Made by a program: the position numbers and the translations under genes. The notes below the pieces were generated by a model. That model saw only the letters and a program-made list of their open reading frames with translations. It made no database searches and was not told the origin of the DNA. Of a stretch of DNA of 29,676 bases, positions 4,510 through 12,334 are shown in pieces; position 1 is the stretch's first letter, and each line of letters opens with the position of its first letter. The stretch lies in contig CAZWUV010000001.1 of assembly GCA_964636735.1 (NCBI GenBank), positions 1 to 29,676 on the forward strand, read 5' to 3'. This stretch comes from an uncultured Candidatus Saccharibacteria bacterium. Lineage in GTDB: Bacteria; Patescibacteriota; UBA1384; JACPKC01.

Positions 4510-6444
4510 TTATCTAATAATTGCCTCGAATGATTTTTCGATTGATTTTAAAAGTTTATTATTTAAATTGTCTACTTCTTCTTGCTCAAGAGTTTTATTT
4601 ATATTGGAATAAAAAACTCTAAACGTAACACTTTTTTTATTGAAACCAAATTTTTCATGAGAGAATTCATCTAGTAAAATTACATTCTCAATTAGACTAT
4701 TAAAAGTCAAAATAAAATTCTTAAGAGTACTAAAATTAACATCCGCATCTATAATTATTGAGGTGTCTCTGGTGGATGGTGGAAATTTAGAGACGGGGCG
4801 GTAATTAGATTGATCCTGATAAATCATAAAATTATCAGGAATATTTGGCTTTAACTGTTTAAGATCTGCGAGAGAGATTTCAAATGTAGCAACGTACTTT
4901 TTGCGAATTTTATACGCATCTTTTAGCTTTTGGTCAAAGTTTGCAACATTACCGGAGGCAATTAGCTTGTCTGCGTCTACTGATAGCTTAAGTGCAAGTT
5001 TGCGTAGGATTTCTTCGATTTTTTGAGTTCTTCCTGCAACGGCTAAAATTAGGCTAGTTGTTTCGCTGTCGTTAAATATATGACCAACTTCAAAAATATT
5101 GATTGGGTCGAACCAAGAATTTTGAGCAATTACCTTTGCTGATCCTGGTGTTAAGGATGGTCGTGGATATTTTAAGTCTGGGTTTAAGGGGTTGAGGAGT
5201 GAATTTTGGGCAGTCAAGTTAAAATTTTCTAAATCTTTTTTACTAACAAAGCTATGTGTTTGCACTTCGCAAAAGTTTAAATCAAGCAGGGTATCCTTGA
5301 GTGTTTCTGCCCATTCCCAATCGCTTTGTAGGGATTTAAGGTCGCTTGCAGGAAGTTTTTGGGTTGGAATTTTGGAATTTAGTCCCTCAAGACGCATTAC
5401 TTCTTCTGCAATATCTTGCCAAATCTTGATATCAAGGCGCCAAGATGGTGCAACAACAGAGTTTTCTGCAGTATCAAATCCCAGCTTTTTAAGATATTGC
5501 TCTTGCTTGCTCTGTGAGATTTTGGTTCCCAGTAAGGAGTTGATTTTTTTTGAGTCAAAGTTGATTGTTGATCGATCTTCCTTGGCTGTTTTGGCTAAAA
5601 TTTTACCAGTAATTTTGGCTTCACCAAATTCTTTGGTTTGAATAAAATTACAAAATTCTGCTAAGACCATCGTGCTAATTTGTGGATCTACTCCCCGTTC
5701 GTAGCGCACAGAAGCATCAGTTCTGGCGGCAAGTTTTTTGCTGGCAATTCTAATTGCTGACTTGTCAAAAATTGCAGATTGCACAAAAATAGCGTTCGTA
5801 TTATTAGTAACTTCACTCGTAGCGCCACCTTGAATTCCTGCTAAGTCAACAAGTCCTTTTGCATCTTCGCCAACTATGACTCCTGTGGGCAAGGTATTGA
5901 CAATACTATTGATTGTTTCAACTTTTTCGCCTTTTTTGGACTCTCGAAGAGTAATTTCACGACCGTTAAGGGAGTGTAAGTCAAAAGCATGTAGGGGTTG
6001 CCCGTATAGTTCCATCAAGTAATTTGTTAGATCAACTACACTATTGATTGGCCTAATACCCATTAAAGACAATTCTTTTTTAAGCCAAGCCGGGCTTTGG
6101 ATAATAGTCAAGTCTTCCACAATAATTCCATGGTATTGAGGAATAAGGCTTGTTTTAAGCTTAACATTTAAAAATTGCGAATCAGGAATTTTATCGATTG
6201 CATGTTCGGATTTTAAAGTTAAGGCTTTCTGGTTGCTAAAATAGGCTTGCAATTCGCGCGCAATTCCTAGGTGGCTCATAGCGTCGCCGCGGCTTGGTGT
6301 TATCTCGACATCAAGCACCTCGCTCTCTCCTTCTAAAACCTCTGTTTCAAAGCCTAAGTCAATCAAAGCATCTGCCATTTCGTAGGCAGATTTTTCTGTT
6401 AATACATTAGATAATTTTGTTAGAATTTTGGGTAAAACTTTCAT
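4510..6444 (-). CDS. pheT: Phenylalanine--tRNA ligase beta subunit (no B2/OB domain)
   Basis: DVEITPSRGDAMSHLGIARE, PINSVVDLTNY..GQPLHAFD, RYERGVD, PSWRLDI..WQDIAEEVMR, and the C-terminal FDX-ACB domain (SKFPPSTRD...KKSVTFR...TLEQEEV). Confidence 0.95.
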   Translation of the reverse strand: MKVLPKILTKLSNVLTEKSAYEMADALIDLGFETEVLEGESEVLDVEITPSRGDAMSHLGIARELQAYFSNQKALTLKSEHAIDKIPDSQFLNVKLKTSLIPQYHGIIVEDLTIIQSPAWLKKELSLMGIRPINSVVDLTNYLMELYGQPLHAFDLHSLNGREITLRESKKGEKVETINSIVNTLPTGVIVGEDAKGLVDLAGIQGGATSEVTNNTNAIFVQSAIFDKSAIRIASKKLAARTDASVRYERGVDPQISTMVLAEFCNFIQTKEFGEAKITGKILAKTAKEDRSTINFDSKKINSLLGTKISQSKQEQYLKKLGFDTAENSVVAPSWRLDIKIWQDIAEEVMRLEGLNSKIPTQKLPASDLKSLQSDWEWAETLKDTLLDLNFCEVQTHSFVSKKDLENFNLTAQNSLLNPLNPDLKYPRPSLTPGSAKVIAQNSWFDPINIFEVGHIFNDSETTSLILAVAGRTQKIEEILRKLALKLSVDADKLIASGNVANFDQKLKDAYKIRKKYVATFEISLADLKQLKPNIPDNFMIYQDQSNYRPVSKFPPSTRDTSIIIDADVNFSTLKNFILTFNSLIENVILLDEFSHEKFGFNKKSVTFRVFYSNINKTLEQEEVDNLNNKLLKSIEKSFEAIIR

Positions 6445-6454
6445 ATTATTCTTT

Positions 6455-7137
6455 TTATTCTTTGCTAAATTGCGACAAAAATCTTAGATTGCCAGAGTAA
6501 AAATGGCGAATGTCTTCGATGTTGTGAGCTATGGCAACTAATCTGTCAATTCCCATGCCAAAGGCAAAGCCTTGGTATTTATTGGGATCTAAGCCCATAT
6601 TTTTAATAACGCCTGGGTGGATCATGCCGCCACCTAAGACTTCAAGCCATCTGTCACCCAGCTTAATGTATGCTTCTAATCCGGGCTCCACAAAAGGAAA
6701 AAATGCGGGCATAAATTTAATTTGAACATCTGCGCCGTACATTGCACGCAAAAATCTGTCAACGTACCTTTGAGTTGTGCCAGATTGATAGACTTATCAA
6801 TTGCAAATCCTTGAAGTTGATCAAAAACTGTTTCATGTGTAGCGTCAGTTGCTTCGTTTCTAAAGACACGTCCTGGAATTAAAAAACGTACAGGCGGTTT
6901 TTTATTTTTCATAGCAGGAATTTGAAAAGCGCTTGTGTGTGTTCGTGGCAACTTGCCATTTTCTAGCCAAAAAGTATCTTGCATATCACGAGCTGGATGG
7001 TCATGAGGAATTAAGAGGTCATCAAAATTATGCTTTTCGGTTGTAATTTCTGGACTATCGAGCACTGTAAAATCAAGCGCCTTAAAAACATTGACGGCTT
7101 GTCGCAGGTAAGAATTTATAGGATGCAAAGACTTCAT
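6455..7137 (-). CDS. pheS: Phenylalanine--tRNA ligase alpha subunit (short form), interrupted by a single-base frameshift at the A5 run 6750-6754
   Basis: The 5' ORF has LHP..NFDDL.IP.DHPARDMQDTF, RTHTS and GRVFRNE. The 3' ORF has FFPFVEPG, WLEVLGGGMIHP and GFAFGMGIDRL. Adding one T to GATTTTTGCG gives ...TLTDFLRAMYGADVQ... and fuses the two ORFs into one of about 227 aa. Confidence 0.92.
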
Positions 7138-7147
7138 GACAAGTTAG

Positions 7148-7546
7148 TTAAGAGAGTTTTGAGGTAAATGAATATTTTTTAGCAGAGATGGTTATTTCGG
7201 CAAATACAATTGATGCAATAAGTAGAATTGCGCCCCATAAATTTAAAACACCTAGAAGTTGAAGCGTTAAAAGTCCACCTGCTACTAGCATGAGTTCAAC
7301 TGATTGACGGATTGATGCTTTAACAAAATTTTGTGGTGGAGTCTTTCTGAAAATTATTCTACGTATTGCAATTCCCAAAAAAGAAAAAAAAGAAATAATC
7401 ATCAAGGAAAAGCCAGCAATTAGCCCTAAATATGTCATTAGGTCAGCGTCTTCTTGTGGAATGGTCATTAAGATACCAAGTGTTAAGAGTGAGCCAAAAA
7501 ATAGGCCAGAAGCAAACATTTGATAAGGATTATTTTCTTTTAGCAT
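7148..7546 (-). CDS. Hypothetical integral membrane protein (about 4 TM helices)
   Basis: 132-aa ORF with four hydrophobic stretches, 10 nt upstream of pheS on the same strand. Confidence 0.75.
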   Translation of the reverse strand: MLKENNPYQMFASGLFFGSLLTLGILMTIPQEDADLMTYLGLIAGFSLMIISFFSFLGIAIRRIIFRKTPPQNFVKASIRQSVELMLVAGGLLTLQLLGVLNLWGAILLIASIVFAEITISAKKYSFTSKLS

Positions 7547-8993: not shown

Positions 8994-10376
8994 TTATTTG
9001 TGCCACTTATCAATAAACATAAATCTATCTGCAGGATTATACCCAGTATGAGATTTAATTCCTAAGATATTTTTTGGAGTGGCAAATTGCCAGACCAAAT
9101 CTTCGAGTTCAATTGCAGGGATTTCTTGGTCAAGAATTTTTCTTAGGTTATTGCTGAGGGTTTGTTTTTTTGCAGTATCGGTTGTTTGGCGGGCTTCTTC
9201 AAGAATTTTATCAGCTTCTACATTAGCAAAATTAGCAAAATTCAAGCCTTTTTCTGAAATTTGCGAAGAGTGCCAGAAAGGATAAAGGTCTAATCCGTAT
9301 CCCAAGTCTATGCCATAAATCAATGCATCGTATTGACGATTAGGGATAACTTGAGTTGTTAGTTCTGCTGGGGTCACTGCTAAGATTGTTATTTCTGCAC
9401 CTAACTCTTCCCAATCCTCTTTGATTTTTTGCGCCCAAGTCATGTGGGGTTCGCTAGATAAAGTTGCAATCTCAAGAGTAATGCTTTTTGATAGCTTTGT
9501 TTTGTTTTTGAGCGCTTTTCTGGTTGCTAGATCTAGCTCCTTTGTACTATTGTTAAAAAATAGGTAAATTTTACGAGGCAATTCTATTGTATAAATATTC
9601 ATATTTTCTAAGAGATCTGGATCAAGGTTGGAGGCACCAGAGATTGCTGAAATTTCCTTTTTTTGCAGAGCCTGTGTGAGTTCTTGGGTGTCAGGATAAA
9701 TTTTTAGAACTAGTTCTTGAAGTTGCGCTTTGCCCGCCAAGGAGTTTTCTCGCGCTAAAAATTGAAATGAATTTTTGTCTGCCTTTTTAAGATAAAACAT
9801 ACCATAATCAAAAATGGGCACTGTTAGATTGTCTAAAAAAGGAGAAAAGCTTTGTTCTAGCTCAAAAGTGATTTGATTGTTGCCAGAGGTAATGGTGGCT
9901 TTTGGAAAAAGAGTTTTATATTGATTTTCTGCCTGCAAAATATCATCTGCAGTAATTTCTGACTTAAGGTTAAAAGTATATTTTTTGCCATTATCTTCAA
10001 TTTTCCAGTCAGTTGAGGCGACGCCAATTATTTCCCCGTTTTCACTAAAATCTACCAAGCCAATTTTTGTAAGCCTATTGATTGTTGGCTCAATGTCCGC
10101 TCTAGATTGTGCCACCATTCCTTCAATATAATCAGCGGAGGCAAAGGTGATAATTTGTGCCTTTGTTTTAATAAATTCCAAAATCCACAAGGAGGATGAG
10201 GTAAGCAGTAAGCTTGCAAAAAATACCAAAAGGACTTTATCTATTTTAGAAAGTCGACTGTAAATTTTTTGAAAAAAACCAAATTGTTTGGTATTGGATA
10301 ATTTTTGTCCCAGAGAACGACCAGAAACTTTGAGCGTATGAAGCCTTGATCTATTTATCGACCGAGGAAATTTCAT
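8994..10376 (-). CDS. ABC transporter substrate-binding protein, family 5 (OppA/DppA-like), membrane-anchored, orphan
   Basis: N-terminal TM helix, then YIEGMV, WKIEDNGKKYTFNLK, ITFELEQSFSPFLDNLT.PI, YPFWHSSQ..GLNFANF, ADKILEEAR. It follows secG and no permease genes are adjacent. Confidence 0.8.
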   Translation of the reverse strand: MKFPRSINRSRLHTLKVSGRSLGQKLSNTKQFGFFQKIYSRLSKIDKVLLVFFASLLLTSSSLWILEFIKTKAQIITFASADYIEGMVAQSRADIEPTINRLTKIGLVDFSENGEIIGVASTDWKIEDNGKKYTFNLKSEITADDILQAENQYKTLFPKATITSGNNQITFELEQSFSPFLDNLTVPIFDYGMFYLKKADKNSFQFLARENSLAGKAQLQELVLKIYPDTQELTQALQKKEISAISGASNLDPDLLENMNIYTIELPRKIYLFFNNSTKELDLATRKALKNKTKLSKSITLEIATLSSEPHMTWAQKIKEDWEELGAEITILAVTPAELTTQVIPNRQYDALIYGIDLGYGLDLYPFWHSSQISEKGLNFANFANVEADKILEEARQTTDTAKKQTLSNNLRKILDQEIPAIELEDLVWQFATPKNILGIKSHTGYNPADRFMFIDKWHK

Positions 10377-10419
10377 AATAAATGCTTTCTCCCCCTTCTT
10401 TTATGTCGTGGCGTGCGGG

Positions 10420-10662
10420 TTAAATCATTTCCTTGATAAATAAATTTCCAACTGAAGAAAGAACAAATAAGATTGCTAATATAATAGTTGTATTAAATAA
10501 AAATTTTTCAACGCCCCTTTTAGAGCGATAAATTGCGTTAGTTCCACCAAAAGCACCGCCCAAGCTAGTTCCGCGCTGTTGCATTAAAATAGATGTAATT
10601 AGGGCAATCGAAATAATAATCTGAATGATATTGGGACCGTATTGTTTTAGAAAGTCTAACAT
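10420..10662 (-). CDS. secG: Preprotein translocase subunit SecG
   Basis: Two TM helices around ILMQQRGTSLGGAFGG....RSKRGVEKFL. Confidence 0.93.
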   Translation of the reverse strand: MLDFLKQYGPNIIQIIISIALITSILMQQRGTSLGGAFGGTNAIYRSKRGVEKFLFNTTIILAILFVLSSVGNLFIKEMI

Positions 10663-10722
10663 AATTTTACTTGCAAATAATAGTGTAGGTGTAGTTGATG
10701 CGACAAAGTTTTAGTGTGATTG

Positions 10723-10797
10723 TGGAGGCCCAGGTCGGAATCGAACCGACGCATTGAGGTTTTGCAGACCCCTGCGTTACCACTTCGCCACTGGGCC
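10723..10797 (-). tRNA. tRNA-Cys (GCA)
   Basis: Cloverleaf GGCCCAG..GGGGT-CTGCAAA-ACCTC..GTCGG-TTCGATT-CCGAC-CTGGGCC-T-CCA with a U73 discriminator. Confidence 0.97.
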
Positions 10798-10800
10798 CTG

Positions 10801-10840
10801 GGTGTTTTGGAGCGGAAGACGGGATTTGAACCCGCGACCT
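10801..10840. repeat. 40-bp perfect direct repeat, copy 1 (copy 2 at 11117-11156)
   Basis: GGTGTTTTGGAGCGGAAGACGGGATTTGAACCCGCGACCT occurs identically at 10801-10840 and 11117-11156. It covers the variable loop, T-arm, acceptor 3' strand and CCA of tRNA-Gly plus 7 nt of trailer. The period is 316 bp. Confidence 0.97.
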
Positions 10841-10860
10841 TCCCGCTTAGCGGGACGCTC
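10808..10860 (-). pseudogene. Partial tRNA-Gly pseudo-copy (3' two-thirds) with the anticodon arm replaced by a 15-nt palindrome
   Basis: Minus strand reads GAGCG-[TCCCGCTAAGCGGGA]-AGGTCGCGGGTTCAAATCCCGTCTTCCGCTCCA. The intact gene reads GAGCG-[CCTCCTTGCCAAGGAGG]-AGGTCGCGGG.... The 5' acceptor strand and D-loop are absent. Confidence 0.9.
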
Positions 10861-10873
10861 AATTAAGCAAAGC

Positions 10874-11116
10874 TTAATTTCCAAGTAATTTTTTAAATTG
10901 GTTGCCGCCTTTATAAGATTTAATTTGGCGTTCCCTTCTTTTTGCCTGCAAAGAAGACTCAAATGTCTCTTTGTATATTAACAACCACTTGCCAGATTGA
11001 CGCGTAGACGTTGTTTGTCCACGATTATGTTCTGACAGTCTTCGCTTTAAATCATTTGTCGATCCAATGTAGTGTCGACCTGATTTTGTATTGCGAAGAA
11101 TATAGGTGTAATACAT
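10874..11116 (-). CDS. Small stand-alone GIY-YIG nuclease family protein
   Basis: MYYTYIL......HYIGST.DLKRRL.EHN.G...T....W.LIY.E.F.....A..RE.QIK. The Tyr motifs, conserved Arg and metal-binding Glu appear intact. 80 aa. Confidence 0.93.
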   Translation of the reverse strand: MYYTYILRNTKSGRHYIGSTNDLKRRLSEHNRGQTTSTRQSGKWLLIYKETFESSLQAKRRERQIKSYKGGNQFKKLLGN

Positions 11117-11123
11117 GGTGTTT

Positions 11124-11198
11124 TGGAGCGGAAGACGGGATTTGAACCCGCGACCTCCTCCTTGGCAAGGAGGCGCTCTACCACTGAGCTACTTCCGC
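11124..11198 (-). tRNA. tRNA-Gly (GCC)
   Basis: GCGGAAG-TA-GCTC-AGTGGTA-GAGC-G-CCTCC-TTGCCAA-GGAGG-AGGTC-GCGGG-TTCAAAT-CCCGT-CTTCCGC-T-CCA. Confidence 0.97.
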
Positions 11199-11215
11199 AT
11201 AGTTTTATTTTTTTA

Positions 11216-11299
11216 AAGACGGGATTTGAACCTTCCGCTTCTAGTGGAACAGGCGCAACCTTCCCGCTAAGCGGGACGCTCGTATCAAGCTACTTCCGC
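11216..11299 (-). pseudogene. Degenerate tRNA-Gly pseudo-copy: anticodon arm swapped for the palindrome, 21-nt hairpin inserted in the T-stem, 3' acceptor end lost
   Basis: Minus strand reads GCGGAAGTAGCT-TGATAC-GAGCG-[TCCCGCTTAGCGGGA]-AGGTTGCG-[CCTGTTCCACTAGAAGCGGAA]-GGTTCAAATCCCGTCTT. AGCTACTTCCGCAT is identical at 11187-11200 and 11288-11301. Confidence 0.9.
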
Positions 11300-11396
11300 A
11301 TGCTTTACAATAGTAGCAAAAATATACTATAAAATAAAGATGTTGCAAGTTTTTTAATTTACCTGTACTGTCAATTCATAGCATAAAGGAGTAAAA

Positions 11397-11624
11397 ATGC
11401 CAAGAAAACTAGGAAGATCTGAGCTAGCAAAAGCCAAAAAAGAGGCTACCACTAAAGGGCTTACAAAGCACAAGACAATCGAGCAAATCAGAATTGATTT
11501 TTTAGGATCGATGGCGCTTTTTGTAGTCTGCCTTGGTGTCTTAGGTGGTATTTATTATTTTGACCAAAGCTCTCCTCTGCTGAGTGAATGGTCGGTAAAA
11601 GTTTACGAATTTTTAGGGATTTAG
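11397..11624 (+). CDS. Hypothetical small membrane protein (basic N-terminus, one TM helix)
   Basis: AAGGAG SD before the ATG and an upstream TTGCAA-17-TACTGT promoter (11343-11371). One hydrophobic segment. Confidence 0.75.
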   Translation: MPRKLGRSELAKAKKEATTKGLTKHKTIEQIRIDFLGSMALFVVCLGVLGGIYYFDQSSPLLSEWSVKVYEFLGI

Positions 11625-12334
11625 CCTGTAAATAATTCTGGAAATTTTTCTTGACGAAATTCTCCTGATTGTAAGTCTCCCAAAACAATATCACCGTATT
11701 TTACTCTAACTAGGCGTTTGACTGGTAGGTCAGAAGCTCCAAAAAGTCGCCTAATGTGGTGATTGATACCTTCGTGAATGACGGCCTTAAATACTAACAG
11801 TCCCTGTTCTCTACCTAGAAACTCTATATTGTCAAATCCTTTTAATTTGCCTTTGATTTTGCGAGGCTTTTTAAGGTTGGCAAGTAGTTTTGCAGGCGGT
11901 ATATTTTGAGGTTGGGCATATACCAAGTATTCTTTGGCAATTTCAAATTTAGGATGACTGAGTTTATACGCTAAATCACCATCATTAGTAAGTAAAATCA
12001 AGCCTTCACTATCTTTATCTAGTCTGCCGATAGAATAAAGGCGTTCATTGGTTTTAATTAAATCCACAACTGTTTTTCTGCCCTCGGGATCGTTAGATGT
12101 TGAGACGATGCCGACTGGCTTGTAGAGCGCAAATAGAACTTTATTTTGTGATAATTTAATTTGTTGGCCAACAAAAAACACTTTGTCTTTGTCAGGCAAA
12201 ATTTTTGTAGCTGGATTTTTAACGATTTTGCCATTGACTTTAACTTTGCCTTCTTGAATTAAAGTATCGGCGCTGCGCCTAGAAGCAACGCCGCTGTGAG
12301 CTAAAAATTTATTTAAGCGTACTGACTGTGTCAT
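11621..12334 (-). CDS. rRNA pseudouridine synthase, RsuA/RluB family with S4 domain
   Basis: S4 domain RLNKFLAHSGVASRRSADTLI..GKVKVNG, YKPVGIVST, catalytic GRLDKDSEGLILLTNDG, HPKFEIAKEY. Confidence 0.93.
   Translation of the reverse strand: MTQSVRLNKFLAHSGVASRRSADTLIQEGKVKVNGKIVKNPATKILPDKDKVFFVGQQIKLSQNKVLFALYKPVGIVSTSNDPEGRKTVVDLIKTNERLYSIGRLDKDSEGLILLTNDGDLAYKLSHPKFEIAKEYLVYAQPQNIPPAKLLANLKKPRKIKGKLKGFDNIEFLGREQGLLVFKAVIHEGINHHIRRLFGASDLPVKRLVRVKYGDIVLGDLQSGEFRQEKFPELFTG

Follow-up and report, generated by a model that had tools for sequence, protein, structure and literature searches.

The tRNA-Gly and tRNA-Cys genes of an uncultured Candidatus Saccharibacteria bacterium enclose a 316-nucleotide (nt) unit that encodes a small GIY-YIG protein and carries a disabled partial copy of the tRNA-Gly gene. 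This unit probably belongs to a family of apparently selfish cassettes, devoid of a recombinase, that reside at the tRNA genes of Candidate Phyla Radiation (CPR)/Patescibacteria. A cassette of this kind consists of a GIY-YIG gene and a disabled partial copy of the host tRNA, one arm of which has been swapped for a lineage-specific GC-rich palindrome. The window referred to throughout is the whole stretch of DNA that was analyzed, positions 1-29,676 of contig CAZWUV010000001.1 (assembly GCA_964636735.1). It belongs to a genome of 692 kb with 39% G+C in 87 contigs.

The 316-nt unit and its filled and empty alleles

The locus reads 5' to 3' on the minus strand, to which all of its coordinates refer. 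Its order is pseudo-Gly A, a 17-nt spacer, tRNA-Gly(GCC), AAACACC, the open reading frame (ORF) of 80 amino acids, a hairpin, pseudo-Gly B, AAACACC plus CAG, and tRNA-Cys. A first-pass annotation, made from the sequence alone, had proposed this arrangement, and every element was found at its place to the base. The perfect 40-nt repeat with a 316-nt period that it reported is also present. Copy 1 (11117..11156) comprises positions 43-75 of tRNA-Gly and the 7-nt trailer AAACACC, and copy 2 (10801..10840) is 100% identical to it. The unit that is present or absent between strains can be placed at 10801..11116, a register that is arbitrary within the 40-nt repeat. The intact tRNA-Gly(GCC) at 11124..11198 was identified by ARAGORN and scores 77 bits over its full length in Rfam, and the ATG of the ORF (10874..11116) stands directly after its AAACACC trailer.

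Pseudo-Gly B (10808..10860) consists of GAGCG (tRNA positions 22-26), the palindrome TCCCGCTAAGCGGGA, and tRNA-Gly positions 44-75. The 15-nt palindrome (10855-10841) occupies the site of the 17-nt anticodon arm, and on either side of it GAGCG and AGGTCGCGGG...CCA match tRNA-Gly without a difference (33 nt at 100%). Pseudo-Gly A (11216..11299), delineated by sequence reading and repeat comparison, starts with tRNA-Gly positions 1-12, an altered D-loop, GAGCG, the palindrome TCCCGCTTAGCGGGA (11276-11262), and AGGTTGCG. Here too the palindrome stands where the anticodon arm would be, with its central base flipped relative to pseudo-Gly B. About 14 nt of filler follows, and then GCGGAAG is fused straight to GGTTCAAATCCCGTCTT from the T-loop region. 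Because GCGGAAG, the tRNA 5' end, restarts after the filler, pseudo-Gly A is a composite of two fragments. The second remnant, read by eye, joins tRNA-Gly positions 1-7 to about 52-67. The palindrome TCCCGC-T(A/T)A-GCGGGA has two sites only in the 692-kb genome, both at this locus, one 19 nt past the ORF stop codon and the other 146 nt ahead of the start codon.

When folded as single-stranded DNA, the region from the ORF end through pseudo-Gly B forms three hairpins (z = -3.6). A role of the pseudo-copies as functional tRNA-like RNAs was considered and rejected, as they are truncated and have no acceptor partner, and the folding of pseudo-Gly A does not surpass that of shuffled sequences (z = -1.2). 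The name "tRNA mimics" given to them by the first-pass annotation is misleading, since the copies are truncated, disabled gene fragments. An Rfam scan of the locus at permissive E-values detected only the two tRNAs and left the pseudo-copies unmatched. A group I intron in the tRNA was also rejected, because the tRNA is intact and there is no intron RNA.

Judged by its sequence, the ORF belongs to the GIY-YIG nuclease superfamily. The PF01541 match spans residues 1-68 (E=1.8e-15), a single domain that covers nearly the whole protein, and the catalytic-type residues Y5, Y16, G18, R26, H30, and E62 are invariant across the five paralogues of the genome. The best solved relatives are the UPF0213 proteins 1zg2 and 1ywl (E=2.5e-5), followed by SLX1. 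The NCBIfam model grpIintron_endo matches residues 5-40 only, with a score under its cut-off. The domain plan of Seg-like homing endonucleases (a GIY-YIG domain, a linker, and a C-terminal DNA-binding domain) is absent from this protein of 80 amino acids and one domain. No integrase or transposase lies within about 5 kb of the unit, which agrees with the earlier claim that no recombinase is present. Between 4.5 and 16.6 kb of the window, ten ORFs were scanned (SecG and the nine annotated-strand ORFs of at least 120 amino acids), and each is either a housekeeping gene or without a Pfam match.

Contigs from activated-sludge and wastewater metagenomes, aligned to window positions 10300-11800, revealed alternative alleles. 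In run X1, probably the source sample, depth over the ORF is 4.9 and that of the flanks 5.2-5.8. In run X3, from another study, both flanks have 0 mismatches and pseudo-Gly A is present, and a contig joins 10800 to 11117, skipping exactly 316 nt. The plain Gly-AAACACCCAG-Cys arrangement predicted to remain after deletion of one unit thus occurs in nature. In run X4, a related strain with 25 differences over 220 nt has 11186 fused to 11288, so that 101 nt (11187-11287) are skipped and pseudo-Gly A is missing. Metagenome contigs show presence rather than absence, and depth over 10861-11115 is 0 in X3, X4, and X6. Because the arrangements in X4, X3, and the source differ, three alleles exist: plain, scar, and scar plus cassette. 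A search for empty Gly-Cys alleles in sister genomes, suggested as a check by the first-pass annotation, found six relatives with spacers of 4-20 nt, and one of these spacers ends in CCCAG, as in the window. Presence/absence polymorphism at a conserved site between close relatives, a hallmark of homing endonucleases, is therefore observed here. The same annotation had proposed a minimal nuclease-driven element that propagates at tRNA genes. What stands of this proposal is a discrete, recombinase-free unit of about 0.3 kb that is tied to tRNA genes and is present or absent exactly at the 40-nt repeats.

None of the contigs examined crosses either 40-nt repeat into unique sequence at both ends. 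The contigs were built with 31-nt words, so that a circle or tandem junction of the 316-nt unit would be hidden inside the 40-nt repeat. Because no contig bridges the repeats, the filled arrangement is supported by the original assembly, the matching depth, and the identical architecture at loci L156 and L095 of other genomes. An assembly chimera, in which the ORF unit of another organism's tRNA-Gly locus was spliced in through the 40-nt repeat, would fit the lack of a unique bridge and the tendency of metagenome bins to break at such repeats. We consider it highly improbable. The X1 unitig that contains the ORF extends from the hairpin past the ATG and the trailer AAACACC, which is specific to this organism, into the 3' end of tRNA-Gly, ORF depth matches that of the flanks, and L156 and L095 come from independent assemblies.

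Cassettes at other tRNA genes

The genome encodes five small GIY-YIG ORFs, and the four others are 36-40% identical to the ORF in the window. Three of these paralogues lie directly 5' of, and are co-oriented with, tRNA-Asn, tRNA-Gln, and tRNA-Ser(GCT). The first 25-30 nt of the respective tRNA are duplicated exactly ahead of each ORF, and the start codon comes immediately after this copy. The D-loop of these 5' copies contains a GC-rich palindrome, which is TCCGCCAGCTGGCGGA, a double hairpin, and CCTGCCTGCCGGCAGGCAGG, respectively. At the tRNA-Asn locus, the stop codon of the ORF is the conserved T8-A9-G10 of the tRNA itself.

The same association is widespread among relatives. A profile search with the ORFs of this genome covered 41 CPR-type genomes of the same class (0.5-1.1 Mb) and found 0-12 GIY-YIG ORFs per genome, about 125 in total, several of them broken by stop codons. 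A tRNA lies within 700 nt of 70 of the 111 near-full ORFs, and 69 of these 70 are on the strand of the tRNA. With one tRNA per ~17 kb, chance would link roughly 10% of the ORFs, half on either strand. The tRNA begins at most 20 nt past the ORF stop codon or overlaps the ORF end in 36 cases and ends at most 100 nt upstream of the ORF in 15. About 25 ORFs have a duplicated piece of the linked tRNA on their far side. A GC-rich perfect palindrome is found within 120 nt of 34 of 61 tRNA-linked ORFs, as compared with 6% of control windows. It is always opposite the intact tRNA, upstream of the ORF if the tRNA is downstream and downstream if the tRNA is upstream. The replacement can be precise to the arm: GTCGCCnnGGCGAC substitutes for the anticodon arm in three genomes, at tRNA-Ala, tRNA-Asp, and tRNA-Val, and the T-arm is swapped at one tRNA-Asp. 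Two other genomes have the 20-nt palindrome of contig C43 in the D-loop of a pseudo-tRNA-Met and of a pseudo-tRNA-Leu. The layout in the window (intact tRNA, ORF, 3' pseudo-copy) recurs at a tRNA-Asp of genome G028 (L095). Scanning homologues for partial tRNAs and palindromes, as the first-pass annotation had recommended, thus uncovered the association at many tRNA genes.

The lineage of the ORF in the window is faithful to tRNA-Gly and to its palindrome type. Databases hold hundreds of homologues with 60-75% identity, whose source names include Amesbacteria, Roizmanbacteria, Levybacteria, and Berkelbacteria. All eight close homologues examined (65-72% identity) sit at tRNA-Gly (GCC or CCC), and in seven of the eight, (T/C)CCCGCC-N(2-5)-GGCGGG(A/G) replaces the anticodon arm of a pseudo-tRNA-Gly. 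Their layouts differ. L156 has the 3' layout of the window, L162, L165, L166, and L168 have the 5' layout, and L159 and L164 have the ORF, an intact tRNA, and then a 3' pseudo-copy bearing the palindrome. L168 shares the synteny of the window (pseudouridine synthase, cassette, tRNA-Gly, tRNA-Cys) but has the 5' layout. These layouts bear on the idea that an integrase-type genomic island entered the 3' end of tRNA-Gly and decayed to the present 0.3 kb, for which the duplicated tRNA 3' end would be the classic att signature. That idea is scarcely credible, since most members of the family duplicate the tRNA 5' end instead and the same small unit size is found at all loci. In addition, the homology extends back to the D-stem and is broken by the arm swap, and an integrase is lacking from the surrounding ~5 kb.

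A tree of the ORFs places about 20 of those without a nearby tRNA, including the paralogue on contig C49 of this genome, in a clade apart from the tRNA-linked ORFs. Three loci with GTCGCC palindromes cluster in the tree despite their three different tRNAs. One of these loci has a pseudo-fragment that agrees with the resident tRNA-Val in the D-arm only, and the fragment looks as though it had been carried in with the ORF. In a test with 30 labelled tips, the number of palindrome-type changes was matched or beaten in 2 of 500 shuffles, which is weakly significant, and that of tRNA identity in 60 of 500, which is not significant. The link between palindrome and ORF lineage is only suggestive, because a tree of 80-residue proteins is poorly resolved.

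Two further observations concern the ends of the cassettes. In 5'-type cassettes, the ORF often extends 10-21 nt into the intact tRNA (e.g., L002, L066, L068, L089, and L129) and terminates either at the conserved T8-A9-G10 or at a TAG in the D-loop. Because such an ORF ends inside the intact tRNA, cleavage by RNase P would strip the stop codon from its mRNA. ORF-less 5' fragments of tRNA-Gly also occur upstream of tRNA-Gly at L022 (G024:C8) and L026 (G025:C1), followed by palindromes or by a fold-back of self reverse-complement sequence. L022 has, in addition, the 5' half of a pseudo-tRNA-Cys between tRNA-Gly and tRNA-Cys.

Hairpin-paired nucleases and other related systems

The closest published parallel is the Ssn family, which comprises SsnA of Neisseria meningitidis and its homologues (cd10448), single-domain GIY-YIG proteins of ~94 amino acids (Chenal et al. 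2025, PMC11893778). Ssn genes are flanked by a cognate hairpin repeat (NTS/SRM) that is also dispersed genome-wide, the enzymes cut single-stranded DNA only, next to the cognate hairpin, and the authors noted that the hairpin-gene-hairpin plan resembles a mobile element (PMC11893778). Like Ssn proteins, the ORF in the window is small (~80-95 amino acid range), has a single domain, and lacks a DNA-binding domain. A GC-rich inverted repeat lies on either side of its gene (10841-10855 and 11262-11276), related repeats are dispersed, and different protein lineages pair with different hairpins. Unlike in Ssn loci, the hairpin here substitutes for one arm of a partial tRNA duplicate, and the gene lies within a tRNA operon; PMC11893778 contains no mention of tRNA. 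Hairpin copies here are in single digits rather than hundreds. By this comparison, the predicted nuclease probably works like the hairpin-specific Ssn nucleases on single-stranded DNA. The fifth paralogue of this genome (L155/L005; G000:C49:996-1226 plus flanks) has no tRNA nearby and is bracketed by a 16-nt inverted repeat, TTGGTCATCCCTGACA/TGTCAGGGATGACCAG. Its hairpin-gene-hairpin plan is nearer to the published Ssn layout than that of the tRNA-linked ORFs.

GC-rich palindromes with a stem of at least 7 are abundant in the genome, with 51 as compared with 4 in a shuffled sequence. They include the families P1 (CCTGCCTRCCGGYAGGCAGG, 8 copies), P2 (TCCGCCAGCTGGCGGA, 5 copies), and P3 (TCCCGCT.AGCGGGA, 4-5 copies), and copies related to the cassette palindrome are present at C17:4301 and C51:60. 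P1 and P2 are patchy in relatives, reaching 15-19 copies, as opposed to 0 for a reversed control pattern. Because these families also occur away from GIY-YIG genes, the palindromes may be independent invaders of dispensable DNA. On that account, they would be miniature mobile hairpins, similar to REP or RPE, that enter dispensable copies of structured-RNA genes, adjoin the GIY-YIG gene by coincidence, and are not acted on by the nuclease. They would be seen in pseudo-tRNAs only because insertions in a live tRNA are lethal. The dispersal of P1-P3 and their copies in a tmRNA gene, in AT-rich elements resembling miniature inverted-repeat transposable elements (MITEs), and in ORF-less pseudo-tRNA pieces speak for this account, which we nevertheless judge improbable. 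Palindromes are found in almost all well-preserved pseudo-copies that adjoin an ORF, where they replace an arm to the base instead of merely inserting, and palindrome type tracks ORF lineage across genomes and tRNAs (the GTCGCC trio and the TCCCGCC type at seven of eight Gly loci). Moreover, a P1 copy lies within ~150 nt of a GIY-YIG ORF in seven of the nine genomes that hold P1, and Ssn sets a precedent for such protein-hairpin pairs.

The dispersed copies themselves are diverse. Despite containing the 16-nt TCCGCCAGCTGGCGGA (L150:520-535; G000:C3:13219-13234), the tmRNA gene gives a full-length score of 134 bits; a pseudo-tRNA-Asn beside another GIY-YIG gene is split by the same palindrome. 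MITE-like intergenic elements with AT-rich inverted ends of the 'tagaatatagaat' type are found at L153 (G000:C2:10600-10760) and L154 (G000:C17:2400-2560), and similar ones at C7:14870, C8:721, C37:3389, and C80:1699. Each of them carries two different GC hairpins, GTCCCRCTTAGCGGGAC and CCTGCCTGCCGGCAGGCAGG, from families that also mark tRNA cassettes. Pseudo-tRNA pieces without an ORF stand beside tRNA-Ile(TAT) and tRNA-Ile(GAT) (G000:C25:595-634; G000:C46:4603-4636 and 4798-4821), and the piece on C25 has a P1-type palindrome inserted between its acceptor and D stems. These tRNA-Ile pieces are likely scars of lost cassettes.

Among homing endonucleases, SegB of phage T4 is a free-standing GIY-YIG enzyme encoded in a tRNA gene cluster, with a 27-bp site that includes a tRNA T-arm motif (PMC2330249). 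As with SegB, the GIY-YIG gene of the window lies among tRNA genes and is present or absent between close relatives. SegB is inherited together with its flanks by recombination (PMC2330249). Unlike the cassette, SegB is a phage protein with a DNA-binding region that cuts double-stranded DNA, it has no partial tRNA duplicate or palindrome, and its gene lies between tRNA genes instead of being nested in a duplicated piece. The tRNA-linked repeats (TLRs) of E. coli (Egan and Landy 1978) end in 18-19 bp of the 3' end of the preceding tRNA, according to the summary in PMC8144298. The unit in the window likewise follows a tRNA and ends in a copy of its 3' end, here 33 nt plus the 7-nt trailer, exact. 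TLRs are non-coding, without a nuclease gene or an arm-swapping palindrome, and duplicate the 3' end only. A conserved non-coding element of ~110 nt in this genome resembles TLRs. It consists of GACGGGTGACAGGAGC, a variable hairpin, and GACGCCAGAGGGCAGAGCCCATGGAGCGAGCCACGCCGAGC, and is present at L146:1390-1503 (G000:C68), L147 (G000:C50:2547-2660, minus strand), and L148 (G000:C69:2529-2647, minus strand), with a partial copy at L149 (G000:C59). It sits 3' of tRNA-Arg(CCT) and tRNA-Ser(GGA) and ahead of a stray 3' end of tRNA-Ser(GCT), and it has no match in Rfam at permissive E-values.

The IS200/IS605 and REP/RAYT systems also combine a small nuclease gene with hairpin repeats and dispersed hairpin copies, and their hairpins are recognized as single-stranded DNA. 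Their enzymes are HUH/Y1 transposases with covalent intermediates, as opposed to the GIY-YIG hydrolase predicted here, and, in contrast to them, integration of the cassette appears to depend on homology with the tRNA gene. In fungal mitochondria, a free-standing GIY-YIG gene at a conserved gene leaves a partial duplicate while one copy remains functional, and GC-rich palindromes co-occur. These cases differ in being organellar, in targeting mostly protein-coding genes, and in having endonucleases with DNA-binding domains. We know of no base-precise replacement of an RNA arm in fungal mitochondria. A study of CPR rRNA insertions described GIY-YIG ORFs in non-intron inserts and nothing at tRNAs (PMC11270868). 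Apart from this study, a search of the literature on GIY-YIG genes at tRNAs, at palindromes, or in CPR turned up papers on mitochondrial genomes, and it yielded no description of a tRNA-nested design with arm-swapped pseudo-tRNAs. The first-pass annotation had called the system undescribed, and this holds for the nesting in tRNA genes with arm-swapped pseudo-tRNAs but not for the pairing of a GIY-YIG gene with a hairpin (PMC11893778) or for a GIY-YIG gene at tRNAs (SegB, PMC2330249). The locus is most likely an Ssn-like nuclease-hairpin pair that behaves like a homing element and is nested in tRNA genes with arm-swapped pseudo-tRNAs.

A nuclease that serves the host could also reside in tRNA operons for their strong, constitutive transcription. 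Such an enzyme might control incoming single-stranded DNA during transformation, as Ssn does, or participate in DNA repair; the tRNA copies would then stem from unequal crossing-over, and the 316-nt indel from repeat-mediated loss. The strict co-orientation and the overlap of ORF and tRNA fit co-transcription, and the catalytic residues are kept across old paralogues. Neisseria Ssn modulates transformation and has been suggested to be domesticated (PMC11893778), and nuclease-free tRNA-linked repeats with identical 3' ends exist in this genome and in E. coli (PMC8144298). We consider this reading rather unlikely. It sits poorly with copy numbers that range from 0 to 12 among relatives of similar genome size, several copies having stops, and with the absence of the gene from a near-identical strain. 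The exact replacement of a tRNA arm by the lineage's own palindrome is a swap that unequal crossing-over does not explain, and the same ORF lineage occurs on both sides of tRNA-Gly in different genomes.

A proposed route into and out of tRNA genes

The preferred reading, a selfish cassette, can account for both layouts because the circular order of its parts (5' tRNA arm, palindrome, 3' tRNA arm, ORF) is conserved across cassettes. Cassettes of the 5' layout carry a long 5' arm (~26 nt) identical to the resident tRNA and a 3' stub of ~9 nt ahead of the start codon. The window shows the converse, with a long 3' arm (33 nt plus 7) and GAGCG as the 5' stub. A cassette with both arms could recombine with a resident tRNA gene through either arm. 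Recombination through the 5' arm would give the common layout of a pseudo-5' copy, the ORF, and an intact tRNA, and recombination through the 3' arm would give that of the window, with intact tRNA-Gly, the ORF, and a pseudo-3' copy. By either route, one tRNA copy would stay intact, and the tRNA operon promoter could transcribe the ORF. The reverse event between the 40-nt repeats would remove the unit cleanly and produce the X3 allele. Pseudo-Gly A is probably the leftover of an earlier 5'-type cassette whose ORF was deleted, and its layout matches that of the 5'-type cassettes L165, L166, and L168.

The predicted nuclease probably binds its palindrome as a hairpin and would nick or cut nearby, as Ssn does on single-stranded DNA. 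The resulting break, or uptake of cassette DNA by transformation, could trigger homology-driven copying into empty tRNA genes. Alternatively, the nuclease might act on incoming single-stranded DNA during transformation. However it arose, the palindrome arm swap disables the spare tRNA copy, splits the homology into two arms, and puts the presumed binding site between them. More tentatively, and with somewhat more doubt than belief, we suggest that the cassettes form a distinct class of recombinase-free mobile elements. A hairpin-specific GIY-YIG nuclease would then travel together with the disabled tRNA copy, which would provide portable homology arms, a tRNA-shaped 'att site', with which the element enters a tRNA gene from either side, rebuilds the gene, and leaves. 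Lineages would be specialized for particular tRNAs and would occasionally switch targets through D-arm and T-arm sequences that are universally conserved.

Several findings weigh against a nuclease-driven selfish cassette. The polymorphism fits insertion or deletion alike, and slippage or recombination at a 40-nt repeat would delete any intervening DNA. The paralogues are old, with 36-40% identity, and there is no sign of recent spread within the genome. The same palindrome families lie away from GIY-YIG genes, in the tmRNA gene and the AT-rich MITE-like elements, and with proteins this short the link between palindrome and ORF tree (2/500 shuffles) is weak. In the genome, the SRM consensus HGTCWY..RNCYNB published for Ssn hairpins has two matches, as compared with 0-4 in ten shuffles, and none at the cassette. 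Unlike proven homing endonucleases, the 80-residue protein lacks a separate DNA-binding domain. A nuclease aimed at a tRNA arm would also have the intact neighbouring tRNA as a target. Finally, homology arms of 5-40 nt are short for RecA-type recombination.

If the proposal is correct, a selfish element of ~0.3 kb is widespread at the tRNA genes of ultra-small bacteria, needs no integrase or transposase, and never destroys its essential target. This would be a new answer to a problem that faces every tRNA-integrating element. It would also provide a biological setting for Ssn-type nucleases outside Neisseria and many natural nuclease/hairpin pairs for tools that act on single-stranded DNA. In CPR genomes, the pseudo-tRNAs and repeats generated by these cassettes interrupt metagenome assemblies and complicate tRNA annotation. 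The locus described here contributes one strain with both a filled and an empty allele, an example of the rarer 3' layout, and a lineage faithful to tRNA-Gly. It is a good test case, because both alleles of the same strain are found in public samples.

A weak candidate promoter for the entire tRNA-Gly/ORF/tRNA-Cys transcription unit, TTGCAA, 16 nt, and TATATT (11321..11348), lies just 5' of pseudo-Gly A; it was recognized by its match to the consensus, for which there are 4 matches against 3.2 expected. The 17-nt spacer between pseudo-Gly A and tRNA-Gly (11199..11215) is A/T-rich. An A/T-rich 8-bp hairpin, AATTAAGC/GCTTAATT (10861..10879), seen in the sequence and by folding, overlaps the ORF stop codon. 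The intact tRNA-Cys(GCA) at 10723..10797, preceded by CAG, was identified by ARAGORN and scores 66 bits in Rfam. Elsewhere in the window, the gene for the phenylalanyl-tRNA synthetase alpha chain looks split into 6676-7137 and 7148-7546 on the minus strand. Of the 246 positions of the core domain, an ORF of 153 amino acids matches 15-168 only, and the adjoining ORF of 132 amino acids has no Pfam match. This could represent a frameshift, an insertion, or an unusual gene structure.

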